Assembly: GCA_038228545.1 (NCBI GenBank)
Contig: JBBRPE010000003.1
Coordinates: 442 to 64,441 of the forward strand
Source: Minisyncoccia bacterium
Lineage (GTDB): Bacteria > Patescibacteriota > Minisyncoccia > Phycocordibacterales > Phycocordibacteraceae
Reading direction: 5' to 3'
Length of the DNA stretch: 64,000 bases
Below are positions 7,514 to 7,960 of this stretch, piece by piece. The translations under genes were made by a program, and so were the position numbers. The first letter of the stretch is position 1; each line of letters begins with the position of its first letter. The notes under the pieces are model-generated. The model searched no databases. It was not told where the DNA came from and worked only from the letters and a program-made list of their open reading frames with translations.

Positions 7514-7960
7514 TTATTTAATTTCCGCTAATGCATCCCCGAACTCCACCTGCTCCTGTTCTGATAATTTTTCGTACGTAACCGTTGTGCCCAAATATTC
7601 TGCAGTGTGCACTAGGCTTGCCAACTGCCAAAAATTCTTTGCTTCCCTGAATTCTCTGGCGGCTTCGTTCATCATGGTCTGGTCCTTTTCAGTAATCTGT
7701 TCGGTACCTGGCCAGAGTGTCTTATGAATCATGAGCCACCGTGCCACTTGATATCCCTGCGGGAGAGGGAGATATCCGTTCCCCGCACGAGAGTTTGCCA
7801 ATTCTGCCTGTATGGCTGCTTTCTCAGTAGGCGTAGATTCGCTCTCCAAACCCTGCAGCTTGTTCATCTGCAAGTTGCGAGCAATGTTGTATACATCTCC
7901 TTCCAAGCGAGCCTTTTCAAGCTCGGGCTGAGCATGCGTTGTCTCTGGTTGTTTTTCCAT
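7514..7960 (-). CDS. Hypothetical 148-aa protein embedded in the atp operon between gamma and beta
   Basis: ORF packed tightly between atpG (stop 7965) and atpD (start 7503) on the same strand. Acidic and helical, no known motif. Confidence 0.6.

Follow-up and report, generated by a model that had tools for sequence, protein, structure and literature searches.

A member of a small helical-repeat protein family encoded in the atpG-atpD spacer of the ATP-synthase operon of a Minisyncoccia bacterium

The DNA analysed here is a stretch of 64,000 nucleotides (the window) from contig JBBRPE010000003.1 of a Minisyncoccia bacterium (GenBank assembly GCA_038228545.1). Its minus strand contains an ATP-synthase operon with the complete F1Fo set of genes in the order atpB-E-F-H-A-G-ORFX-D-C, where ORFX denotes an additional open reading frame (ORF) of 148 residues between atpG and atpD. 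This order, given in a preliminary description of the locus, is borne out by the ORF list combined with Pfam scans. The features of the operon are as follows, from upstream to downstream (L numbers refer to related loci, which are introduced further on).

11622 to 12500, minus strand: atpB (a subunit); ORF with the mechanical start TTG at 12500; tblastn to L088 covers residues 49-292.
11327 to 11554, minus strand: atpE (c subunit, 75 residues); ORF; 89% identity to the c subunit of L088 and L092.
10832 to 11296, minus strand: atpF (b subunit, 154 residues); PF00430.
10459 to 10827, minus strand: atpH (delta subunit, 122 residues, lacking about 60 N-terminal profile positions); PF00213, positions 65-168 of 172.
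8884 to 10434, minus strand: atpA (alpha subunit, 516 residues); ORF; tblastn identity to relatives.
7965 to 8864, minus strand: atpG (gamma subunit, 299 residues); PF00231, E 1e-80.
7961 to 7964, minus strand: spacer AGAT, 4 nt, from the atpG stop (7965-7967) to the ORFX ATG, as read from the sequence; without a Shine-Dalgarno-like sequence.
7514 to 7960, minus strand: ORFX, ATG start, 148 residues, between atpG and atpD.
7504 to 7513, minus strand: spacer CCATAATTTT, 10 nt, from the ORFX stop to the atpD ATG, as read from the sequence.
6130 to 7503, minus strand: atpD (beta subunit, 457 residues); ORF; 92-93% identity to atpD of L002 and L003.
5766 to 6011, minus strand: atpC (epsilon subunit, 81 residues, beta-sandwich only); PF02823 over residues 5-80; same length class in 67 relatives.

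The downstream spacer of 10 nt is as described before, whereas the upstream one, formerly given as 2 nt, reads 4 nt. No recognisable Shine-Dalgarno sequence precedes ORFX or atpD (window positions 7440-8040), and the same holds for the corresponding junctions of L002, L003 and L092; the spacers at all these junctions are AT-rich. The 10-nt spacer is similar to the 3'-terminal part of the AT-rich sequence between atpG and atpD in L002 and L003. In a consensus scan, ORFX and its immediate flanks showed nothing notable in the way of promoters or terminators; the sole promoter-like match is a weak 9-of-12 site inside ORFX, which is fewer than shuffled sequences give. The strand shared with the neighbouring genes, the short spacers on both sides and the lack of notable sites of either kind make co-transcription with the F1 genes the most straightforward reading of the sequence. 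No atpI-like ORF adjoins the operon or was found upstream of atpB, in agreement with the preliminary description; the next minus-strand ORF upstream of atpB (12811-13134) lies beyond a terminator-like hairpin at 12780-12802.

ORFX is a genuine protein-coding gene of an undescribed small family in Paceibacteria/Parcubacteria-type bacteria of the candidate phyla radiation (CPR), as follows from its collinear homologues, their conserved motifs and a confident structural model. An exhaustive phmmer pass over 1.84 billion (1.84e9) cluster representatives yielded 32 matches at E<=1e-3, of which 29 are collinear with the query (best E 2e-37). The 29 homologue clusters have lengths of 117-166 residues, nearly all of them 140-166, and their alignment is characterized by the motifs IYxIAR, GY(E/Q)(I/V)ARWLM and NFxQLASLxxT. 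Invariant or near-invariant residues are R58, G69, Y24, R28, E46, Y70, A73, R74, D93, Q112, L116 and T119. The ORFX reading frame is intact, and its ATG start aligns with the N-terminus of the family. The family is small, with about 29 clusters at 50% identity versus more than 579 atpG relatives in one scan, and a word-indexed search with ORFX recovered only ORFX itself. The matches P0004, P0029 and P0030 were rejected as artefacts; these are long tandem-repeat proteins in which up to 29 weak repeated matches to a 40-residue stretch of ORFX are summed, giving E values down to 5e-27.

The GC content of ORFX (0.489) is below that of every atp gene, and its codon adaptation index (CAI) is 0.699, versus 0.73-0.84 for the atp genes and 0.776 +/- 0.029 for a set of long genes. 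Low GC and low CAI fit an accessory or acquired gene, although they are not decisive.

Structure prediction, proposed earlier as a check, gave a confident result. AlphaFold2 run on the family alignment models ORFX with seven helices (predicted local distance difference test, pLDDT, 94.4; predicted template modelling score, pTM, 0.87), including the helix pairs 23-35/44-58, 68-82/91-106 and 110-122/134-147. Comparison of segments of the alignment by hhalign identified ORFX as a triplicated helix-loop-helix unit of about 40 residues, with the following repeats.

7784 to 7900, minus strand: repeat 1 (residues about 21-59), motif [I/V]YxIAR ... (T/S)xxE ... AR; hhalign 95.9% against repeat 2 and 95.3% against repeat 3.
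7643 to 7756, minus strand: repeat 2 (residues about 69-106), motif GY(E/Q)(I/V)ARWLM ... TxxD; hhalign 95.9% against repeat 1 and 86.4% against repeat 3; G69 is invariant, and conservation is at least 90% at Y70, A73 and R74.
7523 to 7639, minus strand: repeat 3 (residues about 108-146), motif NFxQLASLxxT ... LSxxE; hhalign 86.4% against repeat 2; Q112, L116 and T119 are almost invariant.

As each repeat is a helical hairpin, ORFX has the generic architecture of tandem helical repeats (alpha-solenoid). Similar tandem helix-turn-helix hairpins are found in tetratricopeptide repeat (TPR), Sel1 and designed helical-repeat proteins, but the ORFX unit of about 40 residues has a motif of its own (YxIAR ... 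TxxE), unlike the 34-residue TPR consensus, and no Pfam TPR or Sel1 match was obtained. Foldseek searches against PDB and BFVD gave non-significant helical-repeat matches only, all with E>=0.25 and template modelling (TM) scores of at most 0.37; the best of these were PrgX, the TPR domains of LGN and de novo helical repeats. No match to ORFX was found in Pfam, NCBIfam, PHROGs, PADLOC or the PDB sequences, and Pfam at E<=1 gave nothing for ORFX and nothing consistent across 30 family members. A sub-threshold similarity of a GYExARW-like stretch to PDB sequence 2o5a (BH1328 protein, E 0.16) was taken as chance. The family DUF6477 appeared weakly in three of the 30 members; it was dismissed as compositional, a judgement based on the one match that was located (P0013), which falls in the charged, variable N-terminal region and scores 16 bits against a cut-off of 25 bits. 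HEPN proteins are recognised by a conserved Rx4-6H motif in a bundle of four to five helices; the ORFX family alignment contains no conserved His, and no Pfam HEPN match was seen.

ORFX is predicted to be soluble and acidic, with an isoelectric point (pI) of 4.9 and no hydrophobic segment. Values of pI in the family range from 4.3 to 11.4, several members being strongly basic (pI 9-11), and the members encoded between atpG and atpD are all acidic (pI 4.6-4.9). The conserved residues are mostly structural-looking, i.e. aromatic/Ala/Arg packing motifs and S/T-x-x-E/D helix N-caps. Because of this, and because net charge varies across the family, ORFX is probably a protein-binding helical-repeat adaptor and not an enzyme.

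The distribution of the family is patchy. A scan with the gamma subunit provided 80 species-representative loci (L001-L080), all from metagenome-assembled genomes of Patescibacteria/Parcubacteria/Paceibacterota, several of them named Kaiserbacteria. The nearest relatives, L002 and L003, are 95% identical to the window in atpA and 92-93% in atpD, and their atpG-atpD gap consists of 46-55 nt of AT-rich sequence with no ORF. A hidden Markov model of the family, applied to six-frame ORFs in the fetched stretches, matched none of the 80 species-representative loci and matched the window alone. Conservation at the same operon position, which had been suggested as a check, is therefore absent from close relatives. 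Look-ups and one metagenome scan with a nine-sequence alignment brought the family to 12 independent contexts. Four of these, including the window, have the gene in the atpG-atpD slot with spacers of 2-11 nt, and the atpG genes of the other in-slot lineages are 51-72% identical to that of the window. The other in-slot members are:

P0002 in L085, 51% identical to ORFX.
P0006 in L087, 37% identical to ORFX.
P0010 in L088 (the same organism as L092), 38% identical to ORFX.

In the other eight contexts the gene is found away from atp genes:

P0003 in L086, beside HicAB, NUDIX and nucleotidyltransferase genes.
An unnamed member in L089/L090, after SecA, among MazG-like, ASCH, HTH, HD and NUDIX genes.
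P0024 in L082-L084, beside a cupin gene.
P0031 in L081, between aminoacyl-tRNA synthetase and peptidase M50 genes.
P0011 in L093, after PolA.
P0007 in L095, among hypothetical genes, with no atp gene.
P0012 in L094, with non-coding DNA upstream and a membrane protein gene downstream.
P0008 in L091, alone on a contig of 704 bp.

No neighbouring gene is conserved across the family loci. In a tree of atpA plus atpD the carriers occupy tips dispersed over the tree: L002 and L003, which lack the ORF, are the sister group of the window, L088/L092 belong to another subclade and L087 to a distant clade. The atpD fragment of L085 (N-terminus) is 89-93% identical to those of L008, L013, L010 and L004, the nearest relatives of this locus, none of which carries the ORFX family; the slot of L013 is occupied by an unrelated ORF of 149 residues. 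The slot ORFs of L013, L015 (126 residues) and L016 (127 residues) were considered as diverged ORFX homologues and rejected (hhalign below 1%, no hmmsearch match). A tree of the ORFX family itself has long branches and is only indicative; in it the in-slot members do not form a single clade, and the in-slot P0006 pairs as a sister with P0012, encoded elsewhere, which suggests relocation of a family gene.

The short delta and epsilon subunits noted in the preliminary description are confirmed by their coverage of PF00213 and PF02823, and both are features of the lineage. Epsilon has 76-93 residues and no C-terminal extension in all 67 related loci in which it could be measured. Delta has about 119-134 residues in most of the 37 loci measured; the outliers, six of 81-84 and three of 159-168 residues, come from mechanical ORF extension. 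Short epsilon and delta subunits are present whether or not the atpG-atpD junction carries an insert, and L002 and L003 have the same 81-residue epsilon and 122-residue delta as the window, yet no ORFX. These truncations are a clade character and independent of the insert; therefore ORFX is not their complement. The earlier suggestion that it might substitute for the missing C-terminal helices of epsilon thus finds no support, nor is it favoured by the location of most family members outside atp operons. Nor is ORFX a split-off N-terminal domain of delta or C-terminal domain of epsilon, since the truncations are lineage-wide and hhalign of ORFX against E. coli delta and epsilon gave a probability below 1% (an approximate comparison). 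A core F1Fo subunit would be expected to show profile similarity to one of the eight families and to occur in all relatives with the same enzyme; ORFX does neither.

The atpG-atpD slot is a general hot spot for small accessory genes in this lineage. Among the 74 relatives having both genes, 26 have an atpG-atpD gap of more than 200 nt; gaps of this size were also found between atpA and atpG (10 relatives) and between atpD and atpC (seven). No large gap was detected at atpF-atpH or atpH-atpA, atpH being found in only part of the loci. With few exceptions the longest ORFs in the gaps share the strand of the operon, and their products were identified by Pfam. In the atpG-atpD slot these include MazF (L019, L026), a SET domain (L019), NUDIX (L021, L071), Ham1 (L026, L042), HepT (L042), the 23S-rRNA-IVS protein (PF05635; L035, L056) and a nucleoside deoxyribosyltransferase-like protein (L053). 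At other junctions of the operon, genes for NTPase I-T, HicA, nucleotidyltransferase and cupin proteins occur, and many gap ORFs have no family match. One cargo family can occupy several junctions, as in the case of Ham1, which is found at atpA-atpG in L003 and at atpG-atpD in L026 and L042; the same applies to NUDIX. In the literature no description was found of genes inserted in CPR atp operons.

Several further observations concern these spacers and the surroundings of the operon. Examples of cargo spans are L026:6906-7977, L042:6934-8591, L019:6915-7880, L021:6912-7325 and L035:6980-7345, and enzymes for house-cleaning of the nucleoside triphosphate (NTP) pool are conspicuous among the spacer cargo. 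In L092 a predicted membrane protein of 117 residues without a Pfam match (2732-3085) is encoded between atpA and atpG, in the same operon as P0010. The atpD-atpC spacer of the window (6012-6129, minus strand) measures 118 nt, compared to about 127 nt in L002, and in many relatives it is only about 8-10 nt long. An ORF of 83 residues is present at this position in L003, whereas the window spacer holds no convincing ORF; it may have been left by another insertion or may serve as a site for one. Downstream of atpC on the same strand, two overlapping ORFs, 5309-5683 (124 residues) and 5028-5348 (106 residues), span positions 5028-5683 and have no significant Pfam match. At the other end of the operon, atpB has an N-terminal extension of about 48 residues that is unmatched in relatives, and its real start is probably an internal ATG downstream of the TTG at 12500. 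An ORF of 190 residues at 13357-13929 (minus strand) codes for a protein that is hydrophobic in its N-terminal region and then runs into a repetitive, highly acidic stretch rich in E/D (EEDIEEIQEDVEE...).

Among known additions to atp operons, AtpI, AtpZ and AtpQ-AtpR resemble ORFX in being encoded by small, co-oriented, tightly packed genes outside the eight core subunits. They are, however, small membrane proteins, conserved within clades and encoded at fixed positions (upstream of atpB, or from atpC to atpB in N-ATPase operons, i.e. in the gap separating these two genes), whereas ORFX is soluble, lies between the gamma and beta genes, is absent from the nearest relatives and has no Pfam match to them. 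A likeness in size, helicity and solubility also exists with the inhibitory regulators, i.e. the epsilon C-terminal hairpin, alpha-proteobacterial zeta (DUF1476), mitochondrial IF1 and cyanobacterial AtpTheta, and the ORFX operon encodes an enzyme without the epsilon C-terminal domain; the role of such a regulator is the one proposed in the preliminary description. ORFX is nevertheless larger, forms a seven-helix domain of three repeats, shows no sequence similarity to these regulators, and its presence does not track epsilon truncation. Pfam scans at E<=1 gave no AtpI, AtpZ, zeta/DUF1476 or IF1 match for ORFX. Small ORFs embedded in operons or rRNA genes, such as type II toxin-antitoxin (TA) modules and 23S-rRNA-IVS proteins, share with ORFX the patchy occurrence at a conserved junction of highly conserved genes, but ORFX lacks a partner gene, flanking repeats and any nuclease or toxin motif. 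A type II TA module was rejected, as the neighbours of ORFX are atpG and atpD, the family loci share no conserved partner, and neither PADLOC nor Pfam gave a TA match. An integron cassette can also be discarded: attC sites are imperfect inverted repeats of about 60-140 nt downstream of the cassette ORF, which cannot fit into the 10 nt downstream or 4 nt upstream of ORFX. A phage or viral origin found no support either, with no relative in IMG/VR contigs, INPHARED phages (tblastn) or PHROGs.

We propose that ORFX is an accessory cargo gene in the permissive atpG-atpD spacer, and not a stoichiometric or compensating ATP-synthase subunit, and assign a probability of roughly 0.55 to this reading. 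Several observations weigh against it. Four separate lineages, with atpG genes only 51-72% identical to that of the window, have the gene at the identical junction with spacers of 2-11 nt; one third of the known contexts are this slot, and several in-slot members have a WPG(S/T) motif in common. These would be explained if ORFX were a facultative, lineage-specific ATP-synthase factor (for instance one that regulates or inhibits ATP hydrolysis, or a chaperone for assembly) whose production is tied to gamma and beta by position and which was gained only by some of the lineages without epsilon C-terminal inhibitory helices. The uniformly acidic character of the in-slot members (pI 4.6-4.9) and the lack of the epsilon C-terminal domain and part of delta would suit such a factor as well. 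We regard such a factor as the main alternative, with real weight, but nevertheless as unlikely, since the nearest relatives have identical short epsilon and delta subunits without ORFX, two thirds of the members are encoded away from atp genes, and the family is far rarer than the ATP synthase of the lineage. Moreover, genes that have nothing to do with the enzyme, TA toxins among them, also occupy the slot, and ORFX resembles in sequence neither delta nor epsilon nor any accessory protein of the ATP synthase represented in Pfam.

That ORFX is an immunity, antitoxin or anti-defence protein, i.e. a small, acidic, helical protein that binds and neutralises a toxin or a foreign effector and belongs to the same mobile pool as MazF, HepT and HicA, appears very improbable. 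It is indeed small, acidic, all-helical, fast-evolving and patchy in distribution, one family member lies beside TA genes in L086, and relatives have TA toxins in the equivalent slot. But neither in the window nor at any other family locus is there an adjacent toxin or other conserved partner, PADLOC and Pfam gave no match to antitoxin or immunity families, several members are strongly basic (pI 9-11), and no phage or viral relatives were found. The chance that ORFX is spurious or decaying, either a random frame in a widened spacer or what is left of a pseudogenised gene, is practically nil. The preliminary description would have drawn this conclusion from absence in relatives combined with poor codon usage; the absence from the closest relatives was observed, and the CAI of 0.699, lower than that of the atp genes, is no better than the mean of 0.694 for all ORFs of 100-200 residues in the window, but the conclusion itself is wrong. 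The 29 full-length homologues with conserved motifs and length effectively refute it, and the very confident AlphaFold2 model and the intact frame, with its ATG aligned to the family N-terminus, argue in the same direction. The absence of a Shine-Dalgarno-like sequence, which might also be cited in its favour, is shared by atpD both here and in relatives.

Under the accessory-cargo reading, ORFX would have no promoter of its own and would be expressed by read-through from the atp promoter of a strongly transcribed operon, with the tight coupling to atpG and atpD contributing to its expression. The atpG-atpD spacer would act as a permissive hot spot at which unrelated, promoter-less small genes are inserted, replaced and lost, and they could plausibly be exchanged by recombination across the flanking atpG and atpD genes, which are highly conserved. 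A bolder version, which we regard as quite unlikely, is that the atp F1 spacers, chiefly atpG-atpD, constitute a dedicated expression platform in Paceibacteria that captures and swaps promoter-less small genes (NTP-pool sanitisers such as Ham1, NUDIX and NTPase I-T, TA toxins and novel families), and that the ORFX family belongs to it as a new soluble protein that associates facultatively with the CPR ATP synthase and modulates this enzyme, which has no epsilon C-terminal brake.

CPR bacteria (Patescibacteria) possess an F1Fo ATPase but usually no respiratory chain, and therefore the direction and regulation of the enzyme in these organisms are an open question. An extra protein embedded in the operon is an obvious candidate regulator; the present data argue against ORFX as a general remedy for the missing brake of epsilon. 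Accessory genes carried within conserved operons are already known, whereas the new element is an undescribed, confidently folding three-repeat helical family that is restricted to these bacteria and whose fold has no significant match. Unrelated small genes, toxins and nucleotide house-cleaning enzymes among them, have repeatedly landed in the atp spacers of this lineage. This bears on how ultra-small, promoter-poor genomes express and exchange accessory genes, and it cautions that in these organisms membership of an operon does not equal functional membership.
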